From a virus (Duplodnaviria; Caudoviricetes): a DNA stretch of 54,940 bases. The number at the start of each line of letters is the position of its first letter. Position 1 is the stretch's first letter. Position numbers and translations under genes: made by a program. The notes under the pieces are model-generated. The model saw only the letters and a program-made list of their open reading frames with translations, was not told the DNA's origin and did not search any database. The stretch is taken from IMG/VR virus record IMGVR_UViG_3300010233_000019, positions 1 through 54,940 of that record; one strand, written 5' to 3'. Shown here piece after piece: positions 3,814-54,939 of the stretch.

Positions 3814-4587
3814 ATGCGAATTCTAGTTCTTGGAGATGGCTTCACAGATCGATACCATCTCGCCACATCCTCAAAGCTCAGTGCGGAGGTGCCCATCCCC
3901 ATTTGCAAGATAGAGGGCATTGTGGACCTCCCCGGTGGAGCCCTGAATGTCCGCGAGAATCTCCGATCCCTTGCAGTGGATGGTCGCTTCCTGGTCCCAT
4001 CGGGGGAGCTTAATTTGCCCATCAAGAACCGTCTCATGGTTGGCGACCACCAAATCGCCCGATGGGACGAGAAGGACTGGTGTACACCATATATCCCAGC
4101 GGATCTCTTGGTCCTCCTTGAGGACTGGGATGCGATTATTGTGAGCGATTATGGCAAGGGTTCAGTTTCAAAGGAGGTGATCCAGATTCTACGGGACCTT
4201 ACGATCCCGGTCTTTGTTGACACGAAGTGCGATCCCACTCCGTGGATCGGCTCGGAGGCAGTGATGTTTCCGAACTTGGCCGAATACAAGCAATACGAAC
4301 AAGCATATGAGTGGTTTGGAAAGGTACTCCTCAAACGTGGCAAGGATGGCCTTGCGATGGTGGAGTATGGAAATGTGGTCCTGACGCGGCCAAGTGTGGC
4401 ATCCTACGTACGAAGTGTGAATGGTGCGGGGGATACAACCCTTGCAGCGTTTGTGGTTGCCGTGATGAGTGGGGGCACATTGGATTATTGTATGAAATAC
4501 GCCATGGCTGCAGCGGCAGTGAGCGTGGAGAATCCCCTAACCTACGCCCCCACTGAGGCTGAGGTCTCACAGAAACTCTTTGTCTAA
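3814..4587 (+). CDS. PfkB-family sugar kinase, HldE/RfaE kinase-domain type (heptose-7-phosphate kinase)
   Basis: ILVLGD..DRY, LSAEVPIP, PGGALNV, IIVSDYGKG, VFVDTK, PNLAE, GAGDT. Confidence 0.88.
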   Translation: MRILVLGDGFTDRYHLATSSKLSAEVPIPICKIEGIVDLPGGALNVRENLRSLAVDGRFLVPSGELNLPIKNRLMVGDHQIARWDEKDWCTPYIPADLLVLLEDWDAIIVSDYGKGSVSKEVIQILRDLTIPVFVDTKCDPTPWIGSEAVMFPNLAEYKQYEQAYEWFGKVLLKRGKDGLAMVEYGNVVLTRPSVASYVRSVNGAGDTTLAAFVVAVMSGGTLDYCMKYAMAAAAVSVENPLTYAPTEAEVSQKLFV

Positions 4588-5452
4588 CTACTACCAACTC
4601 ACGGAGGAGGTTCTGGAGGGACTCAAATGGGTCTCTCCAAAGTCCGCGAGGGAAGCCCTTGGTATCATTGGTAAGTATGAGTACGACCACTGTGCGGATG
4701 ACCCCATATACTGGCTCGATCAGACCCAACATGTGAAGACCAAGACCTGGCCAAAAGGGCTCCCCTATGTCTTCACAAAGGATCCGCATATTCTTTACTC
4801 TTGCAAGACATGCGGGGTGGAGATCTTTGGAGACAAGCGAGGACTCCATCTGGAGATGTCCCATAAGATCCTCGCCAAATCCATTCGGGAACTTGGAGAA
4901 CAATTTGAAGAACTCAACCCCACCCGACCCTTCACAGTGATTGAGTACATGCCTCCAATCGCCAGAGCGTGGCTTGATTCTCAATTCTTTGTGCTGGAGA
5001 AATCCCGCGACATGATGGCCACTTGGTTGATGGTGGCACTCTTCACGTGGGATGCCCTCTTCCACAAGGGGCGACAACATATCTTCCAATCCCAAGACGC
5101 GGGAAAAACCCTCGAGCTTGTCCAACGCTCAAAGATCATCTACGATAACACCCCAAAGTTCCTGAAGGACACCATCGGACCCGTGATGTTTGGGAAGGGC
5201 AATTCCAAATCCGGGGAGTTCTTTATCCTTCGCCAAGAGAGCGAGATTCTGGGGTTCCCCCAAGGACCCGATCAGATCCGCCAGTTCCACCCTTCAGGGG
5301 TCTTCACAGATGAAACGGCCTTCCAGGTCGAAGCAGCATCCAGCTTCGCGGCCATCAAACCCGCCATCCAACAAGGTGGCAAATACGTGGGGATCTCCTC
5401 AGCCAATCGAAGCTACTTTGAACTCCTCTGCCGAGATCGGAGTGACGGATGA
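4580..5452 (+). CDS. terminase large subunit, N-terminal ATPase half
   Basis: Walker A-like EKSRDMMATW, Walker B VFTDETAF, coupling motif ISSA; no nuclease domain; TTG start. Confidence 0.85.
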   Translation: MSNYYQLTEEVLEGLKWVSPKSAREALGIIGKYEYDHCADDPIYWLDQTQHVKTKTWPKGLPYVFTKDPHILYSCKTCGVEIFGDKRGLHLEMSHKILAKSIRELGEQFEELNPTRPFTVIEYMPPIARAWLDSQFFVLEKSRDMMATWLMVALFTWDALFHKGRQHIFQSQDAGKTLELVQRSKIIYDNTPKFLKDTIGPVMFGKGNSKSGEFFILRQESEILGFPQGPDQIRQFHPSGVFTDETAFQVEAASSFAAIKPAIQQGGKYVGISSANRSYFELLCRDRSDG

Positions 5453-6015
5453 TAACCCCCCTCACAGGTCGCCGCTTCATGGGAAACTGGGACACAGTCT
5501 TCCAGTCTATCATGGAGACCCAAAATGAACTCCAGGTCCCCGGAGAGATCGCGGAGTTTGGTGTCTTTGAAGGCGGGAATACCTTGAAACTTGCCCAATA
5601 TGGCCGGAAGGTTTGGGCGTTTGACACCTACGAAGGAATCCCCAAGGAGGACTTTGATCCAGAGGTGGACAAGGATCTCCCAGGAAAGTTTACTCCCCAG
5701 TGGTCCATCGCGGATCTCTTTCGGGGGTACCCCCAGGTGATCCCCGTGAAGGGTCGGTTTGCAGAGACCCTCCCCACAATCGCCCCGAGTTTGAAGTTTT
5801 GTTTTGTCTTTTTGGATTGTGATCTGTACTCCTCCCACAAACAAGTCCTCTCGTGGTTGCCTTCTCATATGTCTCGGAATGGAGTGATTCTCTTTGAAGA
5901 CTACTACCTCCTCCCTGCAGCAAAACAAGCTGCAGAGGAATTCAAACTCGAACAAGGTTTCGGGGATCAGGGAGTTCCTGCGAATCTTGTGGTATGGAAA
6001 GACTCCCATGTGTAA
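5449..6015 (+). CDS. TylF/NovP-family SAM-dependent O-methyltransferase
   Basis: EFGVFEGG, AFDTYEGIP, KGRFAETLP, FLDCDLYSS, ILFEDY. Confidence 0.88.
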   Translation: MITPLTGRRFMGNWDTVFQSIMETQNELQVPGEIAEFGVFEGGNTLKLAQYGRKVWAFDTYEGIPKEDFDPEVDKDLPGKFTPQWSIADLFRGYPQVIPVKGRFAETLPTIAPSLKFCFVFLDCDLYSSHKQVLSWLPSHMSRNGVILFEDYYLLPAAKQAAEEFKLEQGFGDQGVPANLVVWKDSHV

Positions 6016-9004: not shown

Positions 9005-9238
9005 ATGTCCTATCCCATCCCATTTGATCCACATAATTGCCTGGTCTATGTCCTCACCTTGTGGGTTCTATATCGGGGGAAGATCATCCTCCGAAAGTCC
9101 CCTCGGGGTTGGTGGTTCCATGCATGGTGGACAAAGGATGGAAAGGACCTCTATGAGTATACTCCTCTAGATCCAAGGTATGATCTCATCTCTCCTCCGA
9201 TGTTCTATAAGGGATACATCAAAACAACCCATCTCTAA
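9005..9238 (+). CDS. hypothetical aromatic-rich protein
   Basis: 77 aa ORF coupled (TAATG) to the next gene. Confidence 0.65.
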   Translation: MSYPIPFDPHNCLVYVLTLWVLYRGKIILRKSPRGWWFHAWWTKDGKDLYEYTPLDPRYDLISPPMFYKGYIKTTHL

Positions 9239-10146
9239 TGCCCACTCTCCTCCATCAACAGCAAGGACTGACCATTGTGAAGAACGACAAGAACGGCTTC
9301 ACAGTGTGCACACTTCACTTCACTGCGGATCCAAAGAAACGCAGCCCCGAGTGGAAACGCGAAGCCTCACAGGGTCTCTCCAAGGCCAAGTTCGAACAAG
9401 AATACGAGATCTCCTATGATGCGTTGATGGGGGAGAGGGTCTTCCCAGAGATCAAAGATCGCCAGGATGAAATCATCTATGCCGAAGGCCCCTTCCTGGA
9501 GGATCATTGGCCCTCCGATCTCCCCATGTGGGGAGGCTTTGATTATGGGGCTCGAAACCCCTCGTCCTTCCACATCTACACCATCTACGATAAGGTGATG
9601 TATGCTTTGTGGGAACTGTATGAGCCTTGCAAGAATATCTTGGACTTTGCCCAACGCATGAAGGATTGCCCGTATTGGGGGCAACTCCGCTACATCGCAG
9701 CGGATCCAGACATATTCAACCTCAAGCAACGCGACATGCGGACGGGACTCCCCATCAGTGTGGAGTCACAATTCCGTAGCCTCGGAGTGAACAAACTCCT
9801 CCAAGGAAACACCGATGAGGCGGGGTGGATTGCCCAGGTCCAACGTCGCTGGCAGGGGCCGGAGATCACCTTCAAGATCCACGCCTCATGTCGAAACATG
9901 ATCAACGAATTTGGCGAAGCCACCTACGTCTCCATGAGTGATCGCCAACTTGAAACCTCCAACTACCGAGAAGCAATGGTAGACAAGAAAAACCACTCCC
10001 TGGATGATTGTAAATACTTCATGAACTCATGTCCCTCGGGAGGACTCAGAAAGGGAAAGCTTCCCTCGCTCGTGTCAAACTACAGCCCCTGGACCTCGCA
10101 ACGCGAAACGGGAAGTCTCTATGATTGGAGTAAAAAGGAATTCTAA
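9238..10146 (+). CDS. terminase large subunit, C-terminal RNase H-like nuclease half
   Basis: EQEYE linker, GGFDYGARNP, AADP, KKNHSLDDCKY; directly upstream of portal. Confidence 0.85.
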   Translation: MPTLLHQQQGLTIVKNDKNGFTVCTLHFTADPKKRSPEWKREASQGLSKAKFEQEYEISYDALMGERVFPEIKDRQDEIIYAEGPFLEDHWPSDLPMWGGFDYGARNPSSFHIYTIYDKVMYALWELYEPCKNILDFAQRMKDCPYWGQLRYIAADPDIFNLKQRDMRTGLPISVESQFRSLGVNKLLQGNTDEAGWIAQVQRRWQGPEITFKIHASCRNMINEFGEATYVSMSDRQLETSNYREAMVDKKNHSLDDCKYFMNSCPSGGLRKGKLPSLVSNYSPWTSQRETGSLYDWSKKEF

Positions 10147-20372: not shown

Positions 20373-20406
20373 CAAGGAGGGGTACCCACTCCCCTCCTTG
20401 ATTCTC
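20373..20406 (+). terminator. stem-loop after the capsid genes
   Basis: CAAGGAGGGG-8 nt-CCCCTCCTTG perfect 10-bp stem; weak U tail. Confidence 0.6.
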
Positions 20407-29623: not shown

Positions 29624-30235
29624 GTGAAGAAAACACAAATCGCCATTCCCCCATTCAAGGACTTCAATGAGGCGAGGAATGTGGTGCAAAATGCCCTCTC
29701 AGGTTTGGTCTCAACTTTGGTAGAGGATTCCAAGAATACCCAACTTGATGGTAAGGGTCTAACCGCGCAGCATCTCGCCACTCCAATTCTCCCTGATGAT
29801 GCAGCAACAAAGGAGTATGTGGATAGGGCTCTTCAAAGCGGACTTCCCCCAAAGAGTGTGGGGGTCCTGGGGGATTTTCAACTTGCCAACGCATCCTCTC
29901 AGTTATCCCTGACAGCGGGATTTCAAGATGTCCCTGGATGCGCGTTGACTTGCCAGAGGAGTGGGACGTATCTAATCCAAGGGAACTTTTTCTTCATCGC
30001 AAGTGGCACGAGTAGTCAAATCTTTGCGGGGGCACTTCTCGCAAATGGGGTTCAACCCACAGGGTTTGCTATAACCCAGGAGAATAGAAATGGATTCTAC
30101 AGTGCCGCCTCTCAACAGTGGCTTTTGCCTATGTTAGGGGGGCAGATTTTAAAACTCCAAGCACTCTCCCTTGCGGGAGTGGGAAAGACTGAAACTCCCC
30201 ATACAAGTATTACAATTTTATGGGTTGGACCCTAA
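29624..30235 (+). CDS. tail-associated protein
   Basis: DAATKEYVD fibre motif; beta-sandwich-like C-terminus. Confidence 0.6.
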   Translation: MKKTQIAIPPFKDFNEARNVVQNALSGLVSTLVEDSKNTQLDGKGLTAQHLATPILPDDAATKEYVDRALQSGLPPKSVGVLGDFQLANASSQLSLTAGFQDVPGCALTCQRSGTYLIQGNFFFIASGTSSQIFAGALLANGVQPTGFAITQENRNGFYSAASQQWLLPMLGGQILKLQALSLAGVGKTETPHTSITILWVGP

Positions 30236-39228: not shown

Positions 39229-39368
39229 AGCCACTCCTTCGAGACGGGGGAATGATGATAGAACGCCCCCTGGCAACACGGACATACTACATTTGTAGGA
39301 AGAGTATATTGATGCTCGTAGGTCCGGCCATGGATGCAGCGATCTCCAAAGTCTAGACAGTATTGCAT
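39198..39368 (-). CDS. small Zn-ribbon protein
   Basis: CPCC...WLCYFC. Confidence 0.5.
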   Translation of the reverse strand: MQYCLDFGDRCIHGRTYEHQYTLPTNVVCPCCQGAFYHHSPVSKEWLCYFCREAKT

Positions 39369-39517
39369 TCTTGTCCTCCCTTCAGGGCTCGAGCGAGGTG
39401 CTTGGGACACAAGGGACCTCCGGTTTTGTAGAGGCAGGCCTTGTATGGGCAGAATTTCTCGGGCGTGGTTTCCTTTTGGAGACGGAGTTGCATGGCAATG
39501 TGGTTGTGTGAGGCCAT
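39353..39517 (-). CDS. small Cys/His protein (54 aa, not in ORF track)
   Basis: Manual translation MASHNHIAMQLRLQKETTPEKFCPYKACLYKTGGPLCPKH...; TGATG coupling. Confidence 0.55.
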   Translation of the reverse strand: MASHNHIAMQLRLQKETTPEKFCPYKACLYKTGGPLCPKHLARALKGGQECNTV

Positions 39518-39708
39518 CAATCCGAGTCCTCGTAGGATCCCACTCCATTTGAAACAAGCTGGGAAGCTTGCTCTAGAAAGAGTTCCGCATCGGAGACTTC
39601 TAGATCTGTGAGTTCCACCCCCGAGTGGATGAAGTCATCCATCATCTCCACAAGTTCGAGGAGGGTTTCTTCCAAATCAGTAAGGTACAATTCTTCATTT
39701 ATGGTCAT
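39517..39708 (-). CDS. highly acidic small protein
   Basis: 63 aa, 18 Asp/Glu, no Lys/Arg. Confidence 0.65.
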   Translation of the reverse strand: MTINEELYLTDLEETLLELVEMMDDFIHSGVELTDLEVSDAELFLEQASQLVSNGVGSYEDSD

Positions 39709-39845: not shown

Positions 39846-42521
39846 TTAGCCCTCCAATTTTAACTTCGAAACTTCTCCCCAACTCTTGGTGGAGTATTTG
39901 ATATCACACTCGAAGTGGAATCCATTGAGTTCTGGCCAGGGTTGGCACAAGATCGAAGCCGACTTCCGGGCTTGTTCCATGTGGCCGTCATGGGGACCCA
40001 TCAAGACAATCGAATCATGTACCTGTGCTGCCATTCTCCAGTCCCTGGCCATCTCATGAAAGACTCCCATCTTCCAGTGATCCACACTTGGCCAGATCCT
40101 GGGATCCGTTGGGAAGTGACAGAACATCATTCGTAAAACCATATCCGCCAAGGTGGATGCGGGTAAGAAGGCGAGGCTCTGTCCCGAAATATCTCTACTC
40201 TGAAACCATCTCTTGCGCCCAAACGGATTACACAGCCACCCTTGTTTCTGAGCAGTCTCAATCGTCCGTTGTTGCCACTTAGCAGTGCCAGCATTAAGCC
40301 CTTTCCAAATCTCCACAAACTCCTTAATGTCGGCCTCGGAGTAGTTAAACCCTTCCTCAACGAGAAACTCGCGTTGCTTTTTAACACCCATACCGTAGTT
40401 TCTGCCATGGTTGATTTTCTTTCCCACGTCTCGCCAGAGTTTGTCGTCTTTGGATTTGGAGATGGGACGGCCAAAGATTTTTGATGCCAGATCACAATGC
40501 TCATCGTAGCCGGGGGTTTTGAGACGTTCCCATCGATCCCAGTCCTCGGCTAGCCATGTGGTGAGGTAGTTTTCTGCTCCGGAGATATCCAAATTAAGAA
40601 TCCCCCAACCAGGATTGTCAGGAACGTAGATAATCCGGAACTCTTCCGGTTGGTTTTGAATATTGAGATCAATCCCTTCACGACGGCCCGAGCTTGCCAA
40701 GCGTCCCTCGGAAGTGCCGTGGACCTTGAGATTGAAGTACATTCGATCTTGGCCAAGCAATGAGTCCTTCGCAAAGTTATTTCGGAGAGTAATCTTTTCC
40801 TTAAGCTTGTCGAGGATGGAGAACTCCGGGTGATCCTTAGAGCCCCAGAGTTTCCGGGCTCTCTTGCCTGTTGTGATGTTTCCACTTTTGGTGTCCTTTA
40901 TGGTGCGAAGCCCTTGGCCCTGGGAGTATGCCTGGACTTGGGTGGTGGAGTTGTAAGGGACAATCCTCTCTATACGAGTTCCTTTGGTAATTTTTGCCTC
41001 CACCATTTTCCCACTGGTGAGTTTCTTACCACACTCGCAAGTATATTCTTGACCGAGGGATGTGAACTCGAAACGCTTTGGCGAGTGAGGATTGCGCGAA
41101 TTGCCTTTACAAGTCTTGAATTTGGGTCGTAGTGTTCCAGGAGCTGCGATGCAGTTACATGGGACTTTTTGTTCATAAGGTTTTAATCCCTCTGGAAGAA
41201 GGTCTTCGTATTCGATTATCTCTTTATCAAGAACCTCTCGTATCTCTCCAAGTCGAGACGTGTCAAGTTTGAAGCCTCGCTCTCCAATGTCTCGGCAGAT
41301 GAAGGCCGCAGGGACGGAGACGTGTCGATAGACAGCTTCAATGTCGAATCGTCGGAGAGCTTGAGAGAGGGGGATATTGATCTGGAACTCTGCATCAGTA
41401 TCTCGTGCGTTGTAGAGTCGGTAAGCTTCATCTCCACTTCGACAACCAAGATATCCCCCACTGTCCTTAGGGATACCGAGATCTGGAGAATCCCAGGTCT
41501 TCCATTGAATGTGACTGGGTACGAGGTTTCCGTCTTCATCTTCGATTTCTCCCCATTTTCCTTTCCAGAAGACTTTGTTCGTGAAGACCGAGGCCACGAA
41601 GCCAAGGTCATGTTTCATATCGGGTTGGACGAGGTGTTGCTTGAGCATCGTGTCTTCGATCACAGCTTTGGAGACATCCCATCCAAGCCGATCAAGATGG
41701 GCCATGTCTGCGTTGATGATGTTGTGGCCAATCAAACTCGTGGCGGACTCGAAGATCCTTTTAAGCTCAGGTATATAGGCACCAGCAAAAGGCACAACAA
41801 TAGCGCTATAAAACCTATCAGTGAGACCACACACAGTGATGTTACCGTCTCGATCCCATTCAAAATCGAACGCAAAATCCTTCGCATTCCAATCTTTCAC
41901 TTCCTGCAAGGTTGGGAAAAGATTGTATCGCTCCGGGGGGAGGACAAGGGACTTTTTGAGATCCCCCACTACCACGCTGAACATCTTGGCTTGCCTCATG
42001 AGGAAGGCGGGATGGAGAGTAGGGATCACACGGGGCTTGGCACTCGTATCACCCCGAAGGGGAAGGGGACTACCTCTCCATATGGTTATCCCTTTACGTG
42101 TGGTGAGGGCTTCGAGGGCATGGTCCCCAAGGGCGATGATTTTGGGCTTCCCACTCCTGGCCAAGGATGGGAGGAAGTGGTGTTTGCGGCAATACTCAAT
42201 CCCCACACGGGCAACGTCTTTACTGGTCCATCGCCACTTCGGATCCGCTGGAAAGACATTCTCCGGAGGGCGGCACCCAATGACATTCAATGTGGAGCAA
42301 TGATCAAATGGGATCCCCGCGCATTTGGTGAGATTGCGGAGCCACTGGCCTGCTCCGCCGACAAAGCCTCGACCCTGACGAGCCTCTTCCTCCCCTGCGG
42401 CCTCTCCAACGAGGAGATGCTGGCCATCACTTGAGAAGAGAGGGACATAGCCTTCTCCTGGGCCATTGCTGGTGAGATGGCCAATTGGGCATAACGCACA
42501 GTACGCTGGTTTAGCAATCAT
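39846..42521 (-). CDS. family A DNA polymerase with N-terminal uracil-DNA glycosylase (family 4-like) domain
   Basis: LVGEAAGEEE..GFVG..G, CRPPEN, TLHPAFLMR; exonuclease FDFE, GHNI..D, YNARD; polymerase GRLAS, NIQNQP, LDISGAE, KKINHGRNYG, VHDS. Confidence 0.92.
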   Translation of the reverse strand: MIAKPAYCALCPIGHLTSNGPGEGYVPLFSSDGQHLLVGEAAGEEEARQGRGFVGGAGQWLRNLTKCAGIPFDHCSTLNVIGCRPPENVFPADPKWRWTSKDVARVGIEYCRKHHFLPSLARSGKPKIIALGDHALEALTTRKGITIWRGSPLPLRGDTSAKPRVIPTLHPAFLMRQAKMFSVVVGDLKKSLVLPPERYNLFPTLQEVKDWNAKDFAFDFEWDRDGNITVCGLTDRFYSAIVVPFAGAYIPELKRIFESATSLIGHNIINADMAHLDRLGWDVSKAVIEDTMLKQHLVQPDMKHDLGFVASVFTNKVFWKGKWGEIEDEDGNLVPSHIQWKTWDSPDLGIPKDSGGYLGCRSGDEAYRLYNARDTDAEFQINIPLSQALRRFDIEAVYRHVSVPAAFICRDIGERGFKLDTSRLGEIREVLDKEIIEYEDLLPEGLKPYEQKVPCNCIAAPGTLRPKFKTCKGNSRNPHSPKRFEFTSLGQEYTCECGKKLTSGKMVEAKITKGTRIERIVPYNSTTQVQAYSQGQGLRTIKDTKSGNITTGKRARKLWGSKDHPEFSILDKLKEKITLRNNFAKDSLLGQDRMYFNLKVHGTSEGRLASSGRREGIDLNIQNQPEEFRIIYVPDNPGWGILNLDISGAENYLTTWLAEDWDRWERLKTPGYDEHCDLASKIFGRPISKSKDDKLWRDVGKKINHGRNYGMGVKKQREFLVEEGFNYSEADIKEFVEIWKGLNAGTAKWQQRTIETAQKQGWLCNPFGRKRWFQSRDISGQSLAFLPASTLADMVLRMMFCHFPTDPRIWPSVDHWKMGVFHEMARDWRMAAQVHDSIVLMGPHDGHMEQARKSASILCQPWPELNGFHFECDIKYSTKSWGEVSKLKLEG

Positions 42522-44687: not shown

Positions 44688-44773
44688 GTAGTAACTCTCC
44701 ATTTCTTGGCACTCCTGCCAAGGTTTGTAGGTGATTGATTTAAAAGGCCTCAAGCGATCCTTGAGGTTCTCCT

Positions 44774-44802
44774 ATTGTACCACTCCGCAGGGGCTTTGTC
44801 AA
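44774..44802 (-). promoter_or_regulatory. sigma70-type promoter
   Basis: TTGACA-17 nt-TACAAT with TG extension on the minus strand. Confidence 0.8.
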
Positions 44803-44803
44803 G

Positions 44804-44827
44804 GGGAAGGGCGGAGTTTCCTTCCCT
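44804..44827 (-). terminator. stem-loop upstream of the promoter
   Basis: GGGAAGG...CCTTCCC inverted repeat in an intergenic gap. Confidence 0.4.
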
Positions 44828-44878
44828 AAGCTACGTTCCTCCCGGTTGGAGCGGGTAGGTCGTGGCGTATCACCTCCT

Positions 44879-45019
44879 CTATGTGAAAGTTCGACGGTAG
44901 GCTAGTTTTAACCATTTTTCAAAACAAGGGAGACATCCACATCTAGGGCAGTAAACACCTTTGTATTTTGGGAAATCCTTACAAGGATTTAGTTGCTTAA
45001 TTTTAACAGGTTTGGGCAT
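44879..45019 (-). CDS. small Cys-rich protein
   Basis: MPKPVK...YCPRCGCLPCF. Confidence 0.5.
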   Translation of the reverse strand: MPKPVKIKQLNPCKDFPKYKGVYCPRCGCLPCFEKWLKLAYRRTFT

Positions 45020-45020
45020 T

Positions 45021-45902: not shown

Positions 45903-46162
45903 TTGGGCTCCTTTTCTTTCTTACATGCAGTGCATCCAATGAAGGGTACAAATTGTGCTGGTACATGCCCGTGAGAGGGTTTCCAGAGTGGGCCTTGGCC
46001 GAAGTAGGTCTTTAGAAGTTCCTTTAGGGTGGCAAGTTCTGTACTGGGACTTGGGGGAAGACCTCTAAAGGTGTAATAATCTCCGTGGGTTGCACCACCT
46101 TTGTAGAGTCCTGGGTGGTCACTTGTGGAGTGAGAGGGGGAATTACAATGCCAACATTTCAT
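45899..46162 (-). CDS. hypothetical Zn-binding protein
   Basis: CWHC..H..H and CTAC. Confidence 0.55.
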   Translation of the reverse strand: MKCWHCNSPSHSTSDHPGLYKGGATHGDYYTFRGLPPSPSTELATLKELLKTYFGQGPLWKPSHGHVPAQFVPFIGCTACKKEKEPK

Positions 46163-48146: not shown

Positions 48147-48422
48147 TTAGGTTACTTCTCCTGTGATAAGGCAAACTGTAGTGAGGTGGTCACGAAACCA
48201 CCGTTCCATGCCATACCTGTCGGTTAGACCTGGGACAATGGAGATCATGTGGGCACGATTCTCACGGGTTCGGGGGAATCCCCCACTCCCGGGGCAACTG
48301 AGTTCCAGATGGACATCGGGAGGGTCACAGTAGCAATAATCATCCTCTCCATGACCCCCCATGCAACCTCCTGTGACTTCGAGGGAAATGGACATTTCTA
48401 CATGGTGCTTTGGGCACATCAT
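48147..48422 (-). CDS. hypothetical Cys-rich protein
   Basis: CPKH, CYC motifs. Confidence 0.55.
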   Translation of the reverse strand: MMCPKHHVEMSISLEVTGGCMGGHGEDDYCYCDPPDVHLELSCPGSGGFPRTRENRAHMISIVPGLTDRYGMERWFRDHLTTVCLITGEVT

Positions 48423-48560
48423 CTTTCTTGTACTCCTCGATTGTGGCGTTTAAAGCCTCTTTGCCGACATAGGATTTCACATTCCTGGCATACCCCAATG
48501 TCCTCTTCGTAGAGGCAGATCGAAATGAGTTCCTCCTCGGGGAACTCCCGAAGGCATACT

Positions 48561-48725
48561 TCACATTGGGGGTGCATTTAGGCCTCGTTGGAATTGGGTA
48601 GAACATAGTGGGTGGGATCTGTATTCGCAGATTTGAAGTAGTTCCAGGGCAAGAAGTTTACAAAGATAGTGTCCCCTAAGCACCCAAGGTTGAGTAGGGT
48701 TACATTGATGCCAAATTGTCCACAT
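48561..48725 (-). CDS. W..CK-family microprotein (copy 11)
   Basis: MWTIWH...YLCKLLA. Confidence 0.65.
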   Translation of the reverse strand: MWTIWHQCNPTQPWVLRGHYLCKLLALELLQICEYRSHPLCSTQFQRGLNAPPM

Positions 48726-48892
48726 CAGGATTTTACCCATTCCACGGTGCAACATTCCTGGAGATAATCCAGGTGCTGGTGTTGGTAGACTAGAAGTCTA
48801 ACCTTACATGTATCCGAACCTCGAATTTCTCGGGGAATGATGCTATGCTGATACCGTCTACTGCCTACACAAGAGTACCAAATATTCCACAT
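48725..48892 (-). CDS. W..CK-family microprotein (copy 10)
   Basis: MWNIWY...TCKVRL. Confidence 0.65.
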   Translation of the reverse strand: MWNIWYSCVGSRRYQHSIIPREIRGSDTCKVRLLVYQHQHLDYLQECCTVEWVKS

Positions 48893-49074
48893 CAGCCACG
48901 CTCCAACCAAATCTTACAACACAAAGGGAAGTAGCGAACGCTGTATTCCCACAACTCTTTTTGGGCAAGAAGTTTACACCAAAACGTCTCCTGCACATAT
49001 GGGGTAACATATATATGGTTATTCACTGCTGTGAGGGAGGCATCACAACTGTACCAAAGCTTCCAACATCTCAT
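48892..49074 (-). CDS. W..CK-family microprotein (copy 9)
   Basis: MRCWKLWY...FWCKLLA. Confidence 0.65.
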   Translation of the reverse strand: MRCWKLWYSCDASLTAVNNHIYVTPYVQETFWCKLLAQKELWEYSVRYFPLCCKIWLERG

Positions 49075-49610
49075 AACTCCTCCATCAATCCATACACCAA
49101 AATATGGCTCAAGATGAGATGGCCATCCTCGCTGCGACCCATGTGCATCGCGGGGACAAGGAGGGTGTGATCTGCGAGATCCTTTGCATGCCCCCCATCA
49201 AAGCCAAGAACTGCAAGGGTTTCCATATCCTTCCCTCGTGCTGCGAGAAGGGCAGCGAGGATGTTGGGGGAGTTTCCACTCCCTGAGATCACAATAAGGA
49301 GATCCACAGGACTCCCGTACATCTCGAGTTGCCGAGAGAAGATGTGTTCGTAACCCTCATCGTTACCCAGGGCGGTGATCATGGCCAAGGACGTGAGACT
49401 TTGGGCCTTCACATGACATTGTTTGGTGAGATCCTGGGCAAAGTGATCCGCAAGGGAGGCACTGCCTCCGTTGCCACAGATCCATACCGTGCCACCTCGC
49501 TCTTGGCATTGGGTTAGGAGATCCCAAGCCTTGAGGATCTCCGGTTCGGAGATGGAGGCAAGATTCTTTTGCAAGGAGAGGAGATAGGTCTTGATGTATT
49601 TTGAGGTCAT
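49071..49610 (-). CDS. gmhA: phosphoheptose isomerase (SIS domain)
   Basis: CGNGGSA..A.HF, TALGND.GYEHIFSRQ, ISGSGNSPN, GFDGG, EDGH...H. Confidence 0.88.
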   Translation of the reverse strand: MTSKYIKTYLLSLQKNLASISEPEILKAWDLLTQCQERGGTVWICGNGGSASLADHFAQDLTKQCHVKAQSLTSLAMITALGNDEGYEHIFSRQLEMYGSPVDLLIVISGSGNSPNILAALLAARGKDMETLAVLGFDGGHAKDLADHTLLVPAMHMGRSEDGHLILSHILVYGLMEEL

Positions 49611-49762
49611 AGAGAGGACTCTGAGGGCTTTGGTTGTAGCATCCACATCCTACCAGGAGAGGTCTGGCATAAGTACTTAAGTTGAGAGGTAGCCCAAATC
49701 TTGCATGGATACGATGTCCATCTTAGGAACCTTCCATTCTTGAGGTACACTATTATCCACAT
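49607..49762 (-). CDS. W..CK-family microprotein (copy 8)
   Basis: MWIIVY...YPCKIWA. Confidence 0.65.
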   Translation of the reverse strand: MWIIVYLKNGRFLRWTSYPCKIWATSQLKYLCQTSPGRMWMLQPKPSESSL

Positions 49763-49908
49763 AGGGGTGCTTCGTGTTTGGTGAGTTTCCATGTCAAACG
49801 TGGGTAAACACGTTTGCAAGCCACATAAGCCCCAAGTGCAAAGAGCTTACATTCATACTCTGCCCAGGTTTTAACTACCCCTTCAGAGACCCAAGTGAGT
49901 TTCCACAT
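49753..49908 (-). CDS. W..CK-family microprotein (copy 7, not in ORF track)
   Basis: Manual translation MWKLTWVSEGVVKTWAEYECKLFALGAYVACKRVYPRLTWKLTKHEAPLCG. Confidence 0.65.
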   Translation of the reverse strand: MWKLTWVSEGVVKTWAEYECKLFALGAYVACKRVYPRLTWKLTKHEAPLCG

Positions 49909-50047
49909 AAATTTGAACTATCCAGCCTGTTCCCGGCACGGCTGGTCTCCTGAAGGGGTCTGGCCACCATAGGGTCATAGACCCAGTACGACCAAGATAC
50001 CCAAAGCAGGAAGGATATATTATATGCCCTGCCTTGGCCCCTTCGCG

Positions 50048-50123
50048 TCCTACCCCCACTCCGTCACTGAGTTATGAGGGCACTGCCCACACAGGGGATT
50101 TGAACCCCTGCTGTGAGGTAGAA
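50048..50123 (-). ncRNA. circularly permuted tRNA-like RNA element
   Basis: Order on the minus strand: closing stem, T arm (TTCAAAT loop), acceptor-like stem closed by AGT, TA, D arm, closing stem. Confidence 0.65.
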
Positions 50124-50124
50124 A

Positions 50125-50307
50125 TTAAACTTGCCGAAATCTCACCTCGTATCGGAGGAGGGGATGGTCAGGATTTCTTGCACCGCCCCTCGCGCACCTT
50201 GCAAGTGCAAGGATCTTGCAAGGGAAGGAAATGGCTTCTATATTACCATATGCTCGTAGAGGCTTCATCTCCCCGTAGTCATATGTATTCCACCAAACTT
50301 CCCACAT
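50125..50307 (-). CDS. W..CK-family microprotein (copy 6)
   Basis: MWEVWW...FPCKILA; SD AGGAG. Confidence 0.7.
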   Translation of the reverse strand: MWEVWWNTYDYGEMKPLRAYGNIEAISFPCKILALARCARGGARNPDHPLLRYEVRFRQV

Positions 50308-50324
50308 TTCAGATGTGCTCTCCT

Positions 50325-50782
50325 AGAATTGGCTCCCCAGTACCAAGAGGGTTTCAGAACCCTCCTCGGCTCTATCACATCCCCCGCTGAGGAGCCAGGG
50401 GAAGCGGAGGCATTTCTGCCTCGGTGTGGTGGGGAATTTCACCCGCTGGACTGTGTTGAAGGCTTGGCAGAGCAAGGGCCTTTGCAATCAAACTCTCCCA
50501 AGGAAGACTCCTCTCAAAGGACACACATCCTTTGATTGGGAATGAGCTTTGGTGATTGGTCAGGACCTTTGGTGGCAAACCTAACAGCTACGCCTTTCAC
50601 GCCCACGTTTCTCCGTAAAGCTACAGAGAACAAAGAGGTCATATAGATTTACTCAAAGCAGATCTAGCAAGGCTTGCTAGATGGACTTCAATACATCCGA
50701 TCACTCCTTGGGCAACCGATGCCAAGCTCCAGATATCCTCTGGAGGGGTTTTAAACCCCGTGCAAAAAGGTAAGGCTACCCT
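50325..50782 (-). ncRNA. candidate large structured non-coding RNA
   Basis: About 460 nt without a convincing ORF, with at least 8 closely spaced hairpins. Confidence 0.5.
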
Positions 50783-50950
50783 TTAGGGGCGGGGTTTAAA
50801 GGTGAATTCCCAAGTGGGGTACCAATATTGCCATTTGGCTATCTGGATTGGGAAACGGAGTTTGCAATGCACATCATCGTTCTCGGGATGGGGCATCCAA
50901 TCTCTGTAAAGAGTCCCCTCTCGGCGTCGGGACCAGAGTTGCCAGGTCAT
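50783..50950 (-). CDS. W..CK-family microprotein (copy 5, not in ORF track)
   Basis: Manual translation MTWQLWSRRREGTLYRDWMPHPENDDVHCKLRFPIQIAKWQYWYPTWEFTFKPRP. Confidence 0.65.
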   Translation of the reverse strand: MTWQLWSRRREGTLYRDWMPHPENDDVHCKLRFPIQIAKWQYWYPTWEFTFKPRP

Positions 50951-51435
50951 AACATATACCCCAGATGTCCATCCTTGTAAGCGTCAAAGACCTCATTGGG
51001 GTCATCCTCAAAGGATTTGGCCACCATCTCAAGGGTGGCTTGAGTGGGTTTGATGACCTCGGGTAAAGGCCAGAGGAGTTTCTTCCACCCATCAAAGAGG
51101 CGATTGAATTGTGGCCAAAGAACCGGGGTGTGTTGCATCCATCTCCACAGCCTCTCCCCATCACAGAGGTACACATTGTCGCTTTGGGAGAGGAGATTTC
51201 GGATGTGAGCTTCCAGTTCAATGGGGATGTGGTACTTCTCCGGCCAAAGGAGACCTCGGAATTTGTCATCAATGTAAACCCATGTCTGACAGGTCGAGGT
51301 GCGCTTCTCACAGTAGCGGCAGATGATACTTCGCCCATCCTGGGTCTCCGGAGAGGGGAGGAAGTTGAACTCGATCCCACTCGCGGTGATTGTGGAGAAG
51401 CCACAGAGAAGGCAGGTTTTGGAGATGGTACTCAT
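50947..51435 (-). CDS. hypothetical Zn-finger protein
   Basis: CLLC...CRYC. Confidence 0.7.
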   Translation of the reverse strand: MSTISKTCLLCGFSTITASGIEFNFLPSPETQDGRSIICRYCEKRTSTCQTWVYIDDKFRGLLWPEKYHIPIELEAHIRNLLSQSDNVYLCDGERLWRWMQHTPVLWPQFNRLFDGWKKLLWPLPEVIKPTQATLEMVAKSFEDDPNEVFDAYKDGHLGYML

Positions 51436-51620
51436 TAGAGTCGAGCCATGGTCATGGTTCTTGGGGAGGTGATGACCCGAAGATCCTCGGGGGCTGTGCC
51501 AGCTTCGAGGAGATCATTGTATGCCCAGCAAATCTTGAGTTTGCAAAGGGATGTTTGATAGGTATGCCATCTATCACTCCAAACATCCCTATATTGCAAC
51601 ACATATCGAAGTCTTCTCAT
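51435..51620 (-). CDS. W..CK-family microprotein (copy 4)
   Basis: MRRLRYVLQY...WHTYQTSLCKLK. Confidence 0.6.
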   Translation of the reverse strand: MRRLRYVLQYRDVWSDRWHTYQTSLCKLKICWAYNDLLEAGTAPEDLRVITSPRTMTMARL

Positions 51621-51802
51621 CTGGGGACACTTTGAAAGCGGGCTCGGGGATATCGGTCTTGCCACTCCCGTAATACTGCGAGACTTTGGAGTCTACAGGA
51701 GCGGTCGGTGTTTTCGTTATATCGATGGGGGTACTGAGGATTATAAAGTTCCTTCCACTCAGGGGAGAGGTAGTCTTGCTGGAATAGGATTTTCCAAATC
51801 AT
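51617..51802 (-). CDS. W..CK-family microprotein (copy 3)
   Basis: MIWKILF...SCRLQ...YP..RF. Confidence 0.65.
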   Translation of the reverse strand: MIWKILFQQDYLSPEWKELYNPQYPHRYNENTDRSCRLQSLAVLREWQDRYPRARFQSVPR

Positions 51803-51805
51803 TTC

Positions 51806-52582
51806 CTAAGCCTCCTTCTGGGCCCATAAGGTGATTGCCCTCTTGTATGCTATGAGGGTATTCGCATCCTCCACGGACGGGGCGGAGTTTACCTCAAGGA
51901 TGACAAGGGTTCCGTCATCCTTTTCGAGGATGTCGCAAGCTCCATGAGTGTAGCCAAGGGCCCCCACCGCGGACTTGGCAACTTCCTTAAGCCTCTCGGG
52001 TCTTGGCCACTCCCCGTAGTTGAGATGCCACCCATTTCTGCGGCTCCGCACAAGGAGAGGAGAGATCCCAGGTTCTACTTTGACCTTCATCCCCGAGCGG
52101 ATGGCTTTGTCTCCGAAGATATGTTGGCGGTACTCGGCTTTGGAGGATACCACTTGCACCCAGAAGTCTCGTGAGAGCCATCGTTGGGAGAAGTGTTCTC
52201 CTCCGATGCGTTCGGGGGTTCCAGCTAGGATTCGAGGACGTTGGACTCGGTTACCTTTCTTGGTGATGATCCATCTCATCTCGGTTCGGCTTGGACTTGC
52301 GGGGACCCGGGTGAGTCTTTGGAATTCCGGACCCACAATGTCCCGGCCCTGAGTGTGATGGAGCTTACGGCCAAAGACTTCAATGCCATTCCGTACCCAT
52401 GCCTTAGCCACCTCCACATCCGTAGTGAACTCAGGACAAGCAAGTCCCGCAAGGCGAAATGCTTGGAGTTGTTCTAGGCCATTCTTGCCACCTTGGCCCC
52501 AATGGAAGGTAGGTCCGGGGGTGTCTTTGAGGGCTTCCTGCAATGCCCTCGTGGAAGGCCAATCTGGTCCGGTAATTTTCAT
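51806..52582 (-). CDS. ATP-grasp amide ligase (phiEco32-like / RimK-like)
   Basis: EYRQHI, RSRRNGW, AVGALG..GACD, ILEVNSAP. Confidence 0.85.
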   Translation of the reverse strand: MKITGPDWPSTRALQEALKDTPGPTFHWGQGGKNGLEQLQAFRLAGLACPEFTTDVEVAKAWVRNGIEVFGRKLHHTQGRDIVGPEFQRLTRVPASPSRTEMRWIITKKGNRVQRPRILAGTPERIGGEHFSQRWLSRDFWVQVVSSKAEYRQHIFGDKAIRSGMKVKVEPGISPLLVRSRRNGWHLNYGEWPRPERLKEVAKSAVGALGYTHGACDILEKDDGTLVILEVNSAPSVEDANTLIAYKRAITLWAQKEA

Positions 52583-52737
52583 CTAGGGATCCCCCTAAAA
52601 AGAACGATTTTATACTCAAAGTCGGCCACTAGTCCACATCTTTGCTGTGCGAGAAGGCGGCAGGGGTATCTTTCAGATGTGGCAAACCCCCAAGGATAGT
52701 TTGGTCCCATTCGATACATCACTTTCCATCCCCTCAT
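52579..52737 (-). CDS. W..CK-family microprotein (copy 2, not in ORF track)
   Basis: Manual translation MRGWKVMYRMGPNYPWGFATSERYPCRLLAQQRCGLVADFEYKIVLFRGIPR. Confidence 0.65.
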   Translation of the reverse strand: MRGWKVMYRMGPNYPWGFATSERYPCRLLAQQRCGLVADFEYKIVLFRGIPR

Positions 52738-53207
52738 CCCTTCGCCTCTTCCCGTTTCCTCATCACCGCCACATCAAAACATGTCTTGGCCGGGGAGAAG
52801 GAGCGGATTTTGATCTTGAGATGTCCAGGGATCCTGGACATCTTGTTGATCTGCACGGCGAGGTTCTTGAGCTGGGTGGGGACAAAGCGGGGATTCTTGT
52901 ATATCCCTCCCCCACAGATCTTGCAAACCAAGGACGAATCCTTCTTGAAAGGCCAATCCCTATCACACTCCGCGAGGATGTGATGGAAGAAGGCTTGTTT
53001 TTGCTTGTGCCCTCGGAGGGTGATTTGGATGTGTTTGTCTTTGTTGTCAACCATTGATGTGGTCCTTGGGGCGAGGGGTTTGATGGGGATTCCCTTCATG
53101 CCAATCTCCGCTCGATGTTTGTCAAAGCGGCACTGAGGGCACTCCCCATTGTAGGTGTAGATATTCCTGGCCCCACACAGAGCACATGTGATGAGGATAT
53201 CACTCAT
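52734..53207 (-). CDS. hypothetical Zn-finger protein
   Basis: CALC..CPQC and CKIC. Confidence 0.65.
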   Translation of the reverse strand: MSDILITCALCGARNIYTYNGECPQCRFDKHRAEIGMKGIPIKPLAPRTTSMVDNKDKHIQITLRGHKQKQAFFHHILAECDRDWPFKKDSSLVCKICGGGIYKNPRFVPTQLKNLAVQINKMSRIPGHLKIKIRSFSPAKTCFDVAVMRKREEAKG

Positions 53208-53406
53208 CTGGGGTCACTCCTGCGGGGACGATGATATATTCCCATTTTTCAAGATTATAGTTGGTGTACCGTTCGGATATAAGTTCGACCTTGCATGGCC
53301 ATACCCTTCGGCCAGCTTCTGGGGAACCCCAAAGGGGATACCATCTTGGGTATTGAATCTCCCCCCTCCAGGTGGAACGATTGCGAAACCACACCTCCCA
53401 TCCCAT
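53200..53406 (-). CDS. W..CK-family microprotein (copy 1)
   Basis: MGWEVWF...WPCKVE...EYIIVP. Confidence 0.65.
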   Translation of the reverse strand: MGWEVWFRNRSTWRGEIQYPRWYPLWGSPEAGRRVWPCKVELISERYTNYNLEKWEYIIVPAGVTPDE

Positions 53407-53410
53407 AGGG

Positions 53411-53731: not shown

Positions 53732-54649
53732 CTAGTTCACTCCTTCGGAGGTTTCCATCTTGAGAGAATCCAAAAACTCCTGCCATTGCAACTCCAAACA
53801 CGCAGGGCAGACGAGTTCTTTTTTGGTGTCCACCTTTGTGGTCCGGCAGATGTAGCAGATATCCGTGCTCATCCAATACCCAGTACCCACCGGACGAGAC
53901 GATGTGCTATTCCACGGTGGGTATGACCCAACTTCGCCAGAGTTCGAGTAGTCCGGATATAGGGTGACTTTTTTTTTGCTCGCTTCAAAGGGAAGGGTTT
54001 CGATTTTGAGAAGCGTGTCTCTCCCATCTTGGGTGGTGAGTTGATACTTCACAAACTCATCGATTTGCCAATTCGTTTTGATTGGGTTCCCAAGGATCCT
54101 AGCGATCTTACTGAGAGGAGTGTATGTGGAACAGAAAACAAGTTCTCCCCCCTCGAGGGTGGCTACGTGGAGATCTTGGGTTCCAAAGCGACAGAAGTTG
54201 AGTTGATCTTCTTCATACCACGCCAGGGCTCCATAGCCCTCGAGGCCTTCCACACCTTTGCCTTCCGCAAAGTTCGCATAGATATGCATCGAGTCCACTT
54301 CAAACTTGCGATTCCATCGGGTGTTCAGATCTGTGTGGGTCCGGATGATTCCATTGTGAATGCCAATCACCCGTCCACCATCGGCTTTGGGAAACTCGAA
54401 GGGATGTGCATTGTCCAGGAGCTTTGGAGAGCCATGTGAGGCACTTCGGGTGTGGAAGATCCCCCGATGTCCGGACCACTCTGGGGGACACTCAAAGGAA
54501 TCCACAATGGACCCAATGTGTTTGATGATGGTATAGCCATCCGAGGCTCCCCAAGAATCCGTGCCTCTCGCGGACATCTCAATCCCAAGATACGGAAGCA
54601 TTGCCCGAGTTGAAGGGGTGATGCGACTTACCCCAAATATTCCACACAT
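53732..54649 (-). CDS. class II (Ntn) glutamine amidotransferase
   Basis: N-terminal MCGIFG, RGTDSWG, HTRSASHG, NAHPF, HNGII, EVDS. Confidence 0.9.
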   Translation of the reverse strand: MCGIFGVSRITPSTRAMLPYLGIEMSARGTDSWGASDGYTIIKHIGSIVDSFECPPEWSGHRGIFHTRSASHGSPKLLDNAHPFEFPKADGGRVIGIHNGIIRTHTDLNTRWNRKFEVDSMHIYANFAEGKGVEGLEGYGALAWYEEDQLNFCRFGTQDLHVATLEGGELVFCSTYTPLSKIARILGNPIKTNWQIDEFVKYQLTTQDGRDTLLKIETLPFEASKKKVTLYPDYSNSGEVGSYPPWNSTSSRPVGTGYWMSTDICYICRTTKVDTKKELVCPACLELQWQEFLDSLKMETSEGVN

Positions 54650-54681
54650 GTAAGTTAAGTGTCCTTTTGGTTTAGATGGTG

Positions 54682-54939
54682 TTACTGAAGATTCCGAAGA
54701 TACTCCCGCCAATCCCCGGAGGGGATAAGTGGCTCTCCATCTCGATGGGGGAAGGTATATATTTCACACTTCCTGATAACTCCGTGGGTAACATCAAATA
54801 CGGAGGCTGTAAGTCTCCGATAAAGCCGTGGATGTCCCTCGATTTGATCAAGTAAGTGGAGAGTCCCTGGGGTAACTTGGTATATCTCCCCTCGGATGAT
54901 GTTAGTCCCGTCGAGGACAAGACTTACTCCCGGGACTTG
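54682..54939 (-). CDS. gamma-glutamylcyclotransferase (GGCT/AIG2-like), 5' end cut off by the window edge; not in ORF track
   Basis: Manual translation ...PG...IRGEIYQV...LLDQIEGHPRLYRR...IY...IPSGDW. Confidence 0.8.
   Translation of the reverse strand, partial: QVPGVSLVLDGTNIIRGEIYQVTPGTLHLLDQIEGHPRLYRRLTASVFDVTHGVIRKCEIYTFPHRDGEPLIPSGDWREYLRNLQ

Follow-up and report, generated by a model that had tools for sequence, protein, structure and literature searches.

The early genes of phage T7 are separated by RNase III processing hairpins, and the intergenic region of the filamentous Ff phages, about 500 nt long, holds five hairpins and combines packaging with both origins of replication. Large RNAs of phages and prophages located near tRNAs are also known, namely, GOLLD and ROOL, which are described as having conserved complex folds with multistem junctions and pseudoknots, backed by covariation in numerous sequences, as often adjoining tRNA genes and, in the case of ROOL, as averaging 581 nt (PMC5737381). 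In T4-like phages, cassettes known as PeSLs, composite terminator/promoter stem-loops found in hyperplastic regions, mark the parts of the genome that are prone to indels (PMC4122927). Here we analyze a hairpin-dense spacer of 475 nt (50308-50782) in the IMG/VR virus record IMGVR_UViG_3300010233_000019, a 54,940-nt sequence from an uncultivated tailed phage that was analyzed in its entirety and is denoted the window below. The spacer is a real, statistically solid feature, non-coding and unclassified.

The spacer lies between the stop codon of a 55-aa open reading frame (ORF) and the ATG of a 60-aa ORF, and all genes neighbouring it are on the minus strand. The first-pass annotation, which covered the block 50325-50782, pointed to seven stems, and all of these were recovered by inspection of the sequence and a scan for perfect stems: 7 bp at 50347-50364; 6 bp at 50407-50422, with a GAAA loop on the minus strand; 8 bp at 50514-50535; 9 bp at 50609-50630, where a C.A mismatch on the plus strand corresponds to a U.G pair on the minus strand; 9 bp at 50662-50682; 7 bp, CTCCAGA/TCTGGAG, at 50727-50745; and 6 bp, GGGGTT/AACCCC, at 50745-50759. 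Perfect stems with loops of 3-8 nt were then counted across the window. Of the hairpins counted, the spacer holds 6 of 127 when stems of 6 bp or more are considered, 4 of 29 at 7 bp or more and 2 of 6 at 8 bp or more, and perfect hairpins are nowhere denser in the contig: only 4 of 2179 sliding windows of 475 nt reach a count of four for stems of 7 bp or more, and each of these 4 windows overlaps the spacer. Dinucleotide shuffles of the spacer yielded on average 0.21 hairpins with stems of at least 7 bp (0 of 1000 shuffles reached 4) and 0.82 with stems of at least 6 bp (1 of 1000 reached 6), that is, the hairpin excess over shuffles is about 19-fold. The contig's two longest perfect hairpins lie outside the spacer: one at 20373-20400, with a 10-bp stem, immediately past the ORF downstream of the major head gene, where a terminator would be likely, and the other at 52819-52843, with an 11-bp stem and a 3-nt loop, inside the ORF 52734-53207.

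The block also folds better than its dinucleotide shuffles, with z-scores of -3.71 on the minus strand and -2.74 on the plus strand for 50325-50782 (100 shuffles each), and -3.43 and -1.85, respectively, for the whole spacer. Among 11 intergenic gaps, the spacer has the most negative z-score on the minus strand, most of the others being near 0. When the surroundings were scanned in 150-nt windows with 50-nt steps, the minus-strand z-score was -2 or lower in 13 of the 19 windows starting at 49850-50750, compared to 2 of the remaining 41 within 49000-51950, and peaked at -4.26 in the window starting at 50650. In a contig-wide null distribution built from 366 windows of 150 nt on the sense strand, the windows outside the region had a mean of -0.36 and a standard deviation of 1.09. 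The most structured of these outside windows are 30001-30150 on the plus strand (z = -4.11), which contains a third GGGTT..AACCC hairpin (30062-30077), and 39451-39600 on the minus strand (z = -4.09). The spacer had been presented as a long gap in an otherwise tightly packed arm of the genome, a description that needs to be qualified: the same arm contains further gaps, at least five of which measure 200-270 nt (39286-39516, 44754-45020, 45903-46158, 49909-50124 and 53208-53410).

By every test that was run, the spacer is non-coding. It contains ORFs of 28-68 codons on both strands, the longest of which encode 67 aa (50375-50578) and 54 aa on the minus strand, and 68 aa (50329-50535) on the plus strand. 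The codon log-odds of four minus-strand ORFs in the spacer range from -0.10 to -0.32, on a scale trained on 28 long genes, the in-frame 60-codon windows of which score 0.165 +/- 0.078. A home-made score of position-specific composition, which tests each frame for 3-periodicity, exceeded 0.1 in no frame in 18 of 18 windows across 49740-50760; the nearby gene for a SIS-domain protein scores 2.4-3.7. A profile hidden Markov model (HMM) of eight of the small ORFs that surround the spacer (see below), run with hmmsearch against 1790 six-frame fragments, detected no minus-strand fragment of the spacer at E<=10 and a single plus-strand fragment, at E = 4.7. None of the spacer ORFs tested matched a Pfam or PHROGs profile. 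A phmmer search of 1.84 billion representative proteins with the 67-aa ORF yielded one match (E = 2.9e-5), which we consider spurious: the matched protein is repetitive, 1019 aa long, aligned in ten stretches, gave a pairwise BLASTP E-value of 11 and has incoherent Pfam matches. Among these representatives, the 67-aa ORF accordingly has no credible homologue. Stop-codon recoding of the spacer was considered as well and rejected, given that the best frame includes four stops, of both TGA and TAG kinds, in addition to the TAA of the upstream ORF. That one or more small proteins were missed here, such as those encoded by the 67-aa or the 68-aa ORF, thus appears very improbable. The accepted small ORFs next to the spacer also score low on codon usage, so that low scores do not exclude coding, and ORFs of suitable size are present on both strands; however, beyond the lack of matches to Pfam, PHROGs, the family HMM or any credible homologue, the 67-aa ORF starts with TTG and, on our own reading, has an unconvincing ribosome-binding site, and tryptophan codons are not enriched in the spacer, with 7 TGG in 475 nt on the minus strand versus 37 in frame across the ten small ORFs of the surrounding family.

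The families represented in Rfam 15 include GOLLD, ROOL, tRNA, tmRNA, and group I and group II introns. A search of the whole window on both strands with the Rfam 15 covariance models produced 0 matches at gathering score; with the threshold relaxed to E<=10, the segment 49700-51000 produced 7 matches at chance level (best E = 3.4), all 22-56 bits below the respective gathering scores, that is, no known family was matched by the block. ARAGORN predicted 0 tRNA or tmRNA genes in the window. No sigma-70-like promoter was found on the minus strand of the spacer, and no hairpin followed by a U-tract, the signature of an intrinsic terminator, was found in 50308-50782, in agreement with the first-pass remark that none of the stems has a clear terminator U-tract. 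In the broader segment 47500-52500, there are 3 terminator-like sites, compared to 5.4 expected from shuffles.

The lack of a sigma-70-like minus-strand promoter and of a U-tract terminator in the spacer is in keeping with its co-transcription with the flanking genes. The reading that we favour, tentatively and with somewhat less than even confidence, is that the block is a cis-acting, structured intergenic segment of a minus-strand early transcript. We infer transcription, its strand and all function; the minus strand is favoured by the orientation of the genes, the more negative z-scores, and two hairpins with G.U pairs that form on this strand only. Most likely, the spacer would be transcribed in a single message with both flanking small ORFs, and the RNA would comprise about nine largely independent stem-loops along with a branched domain some 160 nt in size. 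The first hairpin would engulf the stop codon of the upstream ORF, whereas the ribosome-binding site of the downstream ORF would stay open. In this reading, the hairpins would block nucleases or provide sites for processing, and in this way determine how stable the two halves of the early message are and in what ratio they occur; they would also uncouple the translation of the flanking ORFs.

The predicted anatomy of this RNA, with pair probabilities taken from a 551-nt minus-strand fold, is as follows in the 5' to 3' direction. The upstream small ORF (50783-50950, minus strand), which encodes 55 aa including 6 tryptophans and the ATG of which overlaps the stop codon of a 162-aa gene as ATGA, ends with a UAA stop (50785-50783; TAA in the DNA) that is enclosed by a composite hairpin at 50800-50750. 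The latter is formed by an inverted repeat (I2), with an outer helix of 11 bp (50800-50790/50760-50750) and an inner helix of 8 bp (50784-50777/50772-50765), pair probabilities of 0.96 and 0.94, and a local energy of -23.0 kcal/mol; its 3' arm can alternatively form the GGGGTT/AACCCC stem. It is followed by the 7-bp CUCCAGA/UCUGGAG hairpin, with a 5-nt loop (50727-50745; pair probability 0.99), and by an extended irregular hairpin of 80 nt (50631-50710) that consists of helices of 7, 4, 5 and 8-9 bp (probabilities 0.93-0.99) and is capped by the perfect 9-bp stem at 50662-50682. Next comes the 9-bp hairpin at 50609-50630, with a GCUU loop and the U.G pair mentioned above, the predicted energy of which is -10.1 kcal/mol on the minus strand versus -5.9 on the plus strand. 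The branched domain of about 160 nt (50447-50605) is closed by 5-bp helices, has helix probabilities of 0.73-0.97, and includes the 8-9 bp hairpin at 50514-50535 as well as a 20-nt tandem duplication (D14; 50533-50552 and 50553-50572, 80% identical); as a local 141-nt fold, this domain reaches a z-score of only -1.11. Downstream of the branched domain are the 6-bp hairpin with the GAAA tetraloop (50407-50422; probability 0.98), a 6-bp hairpin, UCCCCU/GGGGGA (50380-50402; 0.87), and a hairpin at 50342-50370, the 7-bp core of which (50347-50364) is extended by G.U pairs on the minus strand only (-15.8 kcal/mol versus -10.6 on the plus strand). The anatomy ends with the start region of the downstream ORF (50305-50322), in which a Shine-Dalgarno-like AGGAG (50322-50318) precedes the ATG (50307-50305) by 11 nt, both being predicted to be mostly unpaired (unpaired probabilities of about 0.2-0.8 for AGGAG and 0.6-0.97 around the AUG). 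This ORF (50125-50307, minus strand) encodes 60 aa with the motif MWxxWW...CKILAL.

In the ensemble, two long-range helices, 50811-50801 with 50443-50432 and 50824-50816 with 50338-50330, close the region with a probability of about 0.9. We do not take this closure as proof of a compact fold, given that it rests on a bulged 11-bp repeat which, by a rough estimate, is unsurprising in 550 nt. The robust helices are overwhelmingly local, and the predicted fold resembles a string of beads more than a compact, ornate molecule.

Several observations weigh against a cis-acting mRNA segment. Simple processing of an mRNA would not require as many as nine hairpins. Promoters of other than the sigma-70 type, or terminators without a U-tract, may have been missed. 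The local folds of 141-150 nt within the spacer reach z-scores of only -1.1 to -2.6, and outside the region, 5 of 358 windows have z-scores of -3 or lower, down to -4.11 at 30001. Single windows that are equally structured do occur elsewhere in the contig, but nowhere else does the structure continue unbroken over about 900 nt. Strand preference, too, is modest: the local hairpin energies sum to -105.4 kcal/mol on the minus strand and -99.0 on the plus strand, and for four hairpins out of eight the plus strand is slightly the better one, whereas two rely on G.U pairs present on the minus strand only. Finally, all but one of the seven stems form palindromes with perfect Watson-Crick pairing, which would suit elements acting at the DNA level equally well. 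An RNA reading is therefore preferred over a DNA-level one, but not proven.

The first-pass annotation proposed that the block is a new large phage non-coding RNA. The parts of this proposal that held are that the block is non-coding, folds better than shuffles, matches no Rfam family and leans somewhat toward the minus strand; the parts not borne out are a discrete gene, given that no promoter or terminator delimits the block, and a compact large fold, given that the helices of high probability are mostly local hairpins. A stand-alone or processed large structured RNA of a new class, acting in trans and perhaps together with the tryptophan-rich microproteins encoded on both sides, either alone or joined with a second structured block of 216 nt, is accordingly a possibility that we regard as unlikely. 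The hairpin excess and the fold z-scores apply equally to such an RNA, the structured signal spans about 900 nt (49850-50800) including the second block, the ensemble closes the region through the long-range helices, and there are precedents in the large phage and prophage RNAs located near tRNAs, GOLLD and ROOL (PMC5737381). Conversely, such an RNA would have no promoter or terminator to delimit its gene, no Rfam match, no homologue found by the searches described below, mostly short-range robust helices, and no real tRNA nearby according to ARAGORN.

The second structured block is a non-coding stretch at 49909-50124 on the minus strand, with fold z-scores of -2.50 and -2.83. It contains a T-arm-like 17-mer, AGGGG-TTCAAAT-CCCCT (50093-50109, minus strand), which is the 'tRNA mimic' previously placed about 200 nt from the hairpin block: the T-arm-like piece is there, but neither ARAGORN nor Rfam at E<=10 sees a tRNA. 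Scans for exact copies of a 23-mer containing this piece found none in IMG/VR and none in 185,579 species genomes. Its interpretation as a phage attachment site (attP) was considered and rejected, the window containing no integrase and the species genomes no match.

The palindromes invite a different explanation, namely, that the spacer works as DNA, be it as an origin of replication, for priming, for packaging, as a genome end, or as an array of palindromes bound by proteins. The six perfect palindromes, of 15-22 bp, can form on both strands, and the plus strand, too, folds better than shuffles, with the z-scores of -2.74 and -1.85 given above. Furthermore, the spacer is located in the replication arm of the genome, where a primase-like gene, a family A DNA polymerase gene and the DiaA/GmhA-like SIS gene are found nearby; one 40-nt patch has a GC content of 0.325, under the 1st percentile of the window (0.35); and the D14 tandem duplication lies within the spacer. 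The expected signatures of an origin are missing, however. No k-mer of at least 8 nt occurs three times in 49909-50790, hence no iterons. Sites resembling the DnaA box (at most 2 mismatches to the consensus) number 3 in 49650-50850, that is, 2.5 per kb compared to 3.5 per kb in the window, and none of them is in the spacer. The GC content of the spacer is 0.51, like that of the genome, with no turn of the GC skew. The palindromes all differ, so that one binding protein cannot explain all of them, and the terminase genes are 40 kb away from the spacer. We consider a DNA-level element somewhat less likely still than a stand-alone RNA, and the replication origin that had been put forward as the alternative to a structured RNA finds nothing positive in its favour, with neither iterons nor a DnaA-box cluster and one modest AT-rich patch only. 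A single site with the perfect DnaA-box consensus is located at 49753-49761 on the plus strand, about 110 nt upstream of the SIS gene, with no cluster of boxes; the fold family of the SIS protein includes the DnaA-associating DiaA, and one match with 29.6% identity is annotated as such.

The two ORFs that flank the spacer belong to a loose family of ten minus-strand ORFs of 51-76 codons located within 48561-52737 (48561-48755, 48725-48910, 48892-49074, 49607-49762, 49753-49908, 50125-50307, 50783-50950, 51435-51665, 51617-51802 and 52579-52737), which share the pattern MW..W, C[KR][LIV] and a Y/P...PR tail. They are rich in tryptophan and cysteine, with a tryptophan content of 6.2% versus 2.2% in the long genes and 37 TGG triplets in frame versus 11 and 10 in the other two frames, and two of them begin in ATGA overlaps with solid genes. 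Thus, these are probably atypical microprotein genes. Some caution is due, given that all ten score 0.15 or lower on 3-periodic composition, a measure on which 91% of 185 gene chunks score above 0, and that leave-one-out profiles are weak, the best E-values being 0.0034, 0.11 and 0.35, with five members falling outside the top four. No homologue of the ten-ORF family was found outside the contig. As the first-pass annotation had it, W..CK microprotein genes flank the block: both flanks carry family members, and what links them to the spacer is adjacency only. Two further explanations of the family motifs were tried and discarded: the CKxLA motif as a DNA hairpin (TGCAAG..CTTGCA), which is found in only one paralogue, the others using different codons, and a sigma-54-like arrangement of TGG and TGCA, for which the spacing is wrong. 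Nearby, a 52-aa ORF (48419-48577, minus strand) contains two CxxC pairs and has the look of a zinc ribbon, with weak Pfam hints (E = 0.016 and 0.033).

This neighbourhood raises the possibility that the spacer is debris, left in a region where small early genes turn over rapidly, made up of remnants of lost ORFs and stem-loop cassettes and having little or no function. Indeed, 4 kb (48.1-52.7 kb) are full of atypical ORFs of 50-76 codons with no outside homologues, the 67-aa ORF of the spacer aligns loosely with the core of the family (AKALAL versus CKLLAL), and PeSLs are described as composite terminator/promoter stem-loops in hyperplastic regions (PMC4122927). We nevertheless find debris improbable. 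As reported above, the family HMM recovered no decayed family member on the minus strand of the spacer at E<=10; at the DNA level, the spacer resembles no other part of the contig, including the paralogue genes (the best exact words are 12-13 nt long, with E of at least 0.6); 16 intergenic gaps have no common motif beyond scattered 9-12-mers; and decay alone does not make a 19-fold hairpin excess. An idea still more doubtful is that about 870 nt comprising both structured blocks (49909-50782) represent a new class of large structured phage RNA that is embedded in, and works together with, the ten-copy microprotein family private to this phage lineage, for example, as a scaffold or decoy that would be bound by the tryptophan-rich proteins during host takeover.

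Judging from sequence comparisons, the phage is an orphan. Nothing in 50,697 phage records exceeds 24% identity to its DNA polymerase, and a blastn search of the same records with 49000-52000, in the mode for distant matches, gave no match. The 162-aa gene next to the upstream small ORF has no homologue but itself among 5.8 billion proteins. In viral contigs, no related loci were found with this 162-aa protein, the SIS protein, the ATP-grasp protein or the family A DNA polymerase (PolA). Relatives of the SIS protein with 65-67% identity are encoded on four metagenome contigs (P0003-P0006; P0003 on a contig of 5,969 nt and P0006 on one of 8,262 nt); an alignment of the SIS protein with these relatives found only matches of 34-38% identity in viral contigs, and the metagenome SIS loci among the matches listed are 44-48% identical. 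The phosphoesterase is represented in viral contigs by 13 loci with 32-39% identity, none of which has a second protein in common with the 24 window proteins compared. At the nucleotide level, the hairpin around the stop codon has no exact match in viral contigs, a 21-nt palindrome has none in genome contigs, and neither the family HMM nor blastn with the spacer found anything in loci L002-L008.

The virus record is classified as linear and is estimated to be about 82% complete. A plus-strand arm (about 1-36.7 kb) carries genes for the portal, major head, terminase-like and tail-fibre proteins, and a minus-strand arm (36.7-54.9 kb) carries genes of the replication or early type: metallophosphoesterase, a primase-like DUF3987 protein, family A DNA polymerase with an N-terminal UDG-family domain, HNH endonuclease, a Sak4-like protein, exonuclease, the SIS-domain (GmhA/DiaA-like) protein (49071-49646, minus strand), the ATP-grasp protein (51806-52582, minus strand) and glutamine amidotransferase. 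No integrase was seen among the annotated genes of the window. The DNA polymerase (39846-42521, minus strand; 891 aa) combines the UDG-family N-terminal domain and the 3'-5' exonuclease domain in a single protein. In the plus-strand arm, two ORFs located about 3.8 kb apart (4580-5452 and 9238-10146) both match large-terminase PHROGs and are separated by a TylF-type methyltransferase gene and two ORFs (230 and 622 aa) without a match; judging by the profile matches, they may represent a split or interrupted terminase gene. Enzymes of sugar and small-molecule metabolism are scattered over the contig, namely, a PfkB-family kinase (3814-4587), the TylF methyltransferase (5449-6015), the SIS/GmhA-like isomerase (49071-49646), the ATP-grasp protein (51806-52582) and the glutamine amidotransferase (53732-54712); taken together, this set suggests a phage-encoded modification pathway.

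With no relatives found in the searches above, the block cannot yet be called a new RNA gene. It is a single-copy candidate, the value of which lies in being a precise target, with defined coordinates, strand and helices. If it is a functional RNA, it adds an unclassified structured element to the early regions of phages, which are among the least understood parts of their genomes; if, moreover, it is paired with the private tryptophan-rich microproteins, it could point to a new RNA-protein device for host takeover or anti-defence.

Compared to the known systems, the block belongs to no described family. Like GOLLD and ROOL, it is found in a phage, is of similar size and has a tRNA-like feature about 200 nt away; unlike these RNAs (PMC5737381), it has no match in Rfam 15, no supported multistem junctions or pseudoknots, and no genuine tRNA nearby. 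With PeSLs, it has in common that stem-loops separate early ORFs that are small and orphan, in surroundings that look variable; however, whereas PeSLs are described as repeated, conserved cassettes with an early promoter (PMC4122927), the hairpins of the spacer all differ, none is repeated and there is no sigma-70-like promoter. The resemblance of the spacer to the phage Ff intergenic region consists of a comparable length and a hairpin-dense, non-coding appearance, but Ff is a single-stranded DNA phage of an unrelated virus type, whereas the phage analyzed here is a tailed double-stranded DNA phage with portal, capsid and terminase genes. The junctions between T7-type early genes contain one irregular hairpin each, whereas about nine hairpins are packed into 475 nt here; in both cases, non-coding hairpins are located amid small early genes, on the presumed transcribed strand, with neither a promoter nor a U-tract terminator. 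By analogy, then, the closest counterpart of the block would be the structured hairpins located between the genes of phage early operons.

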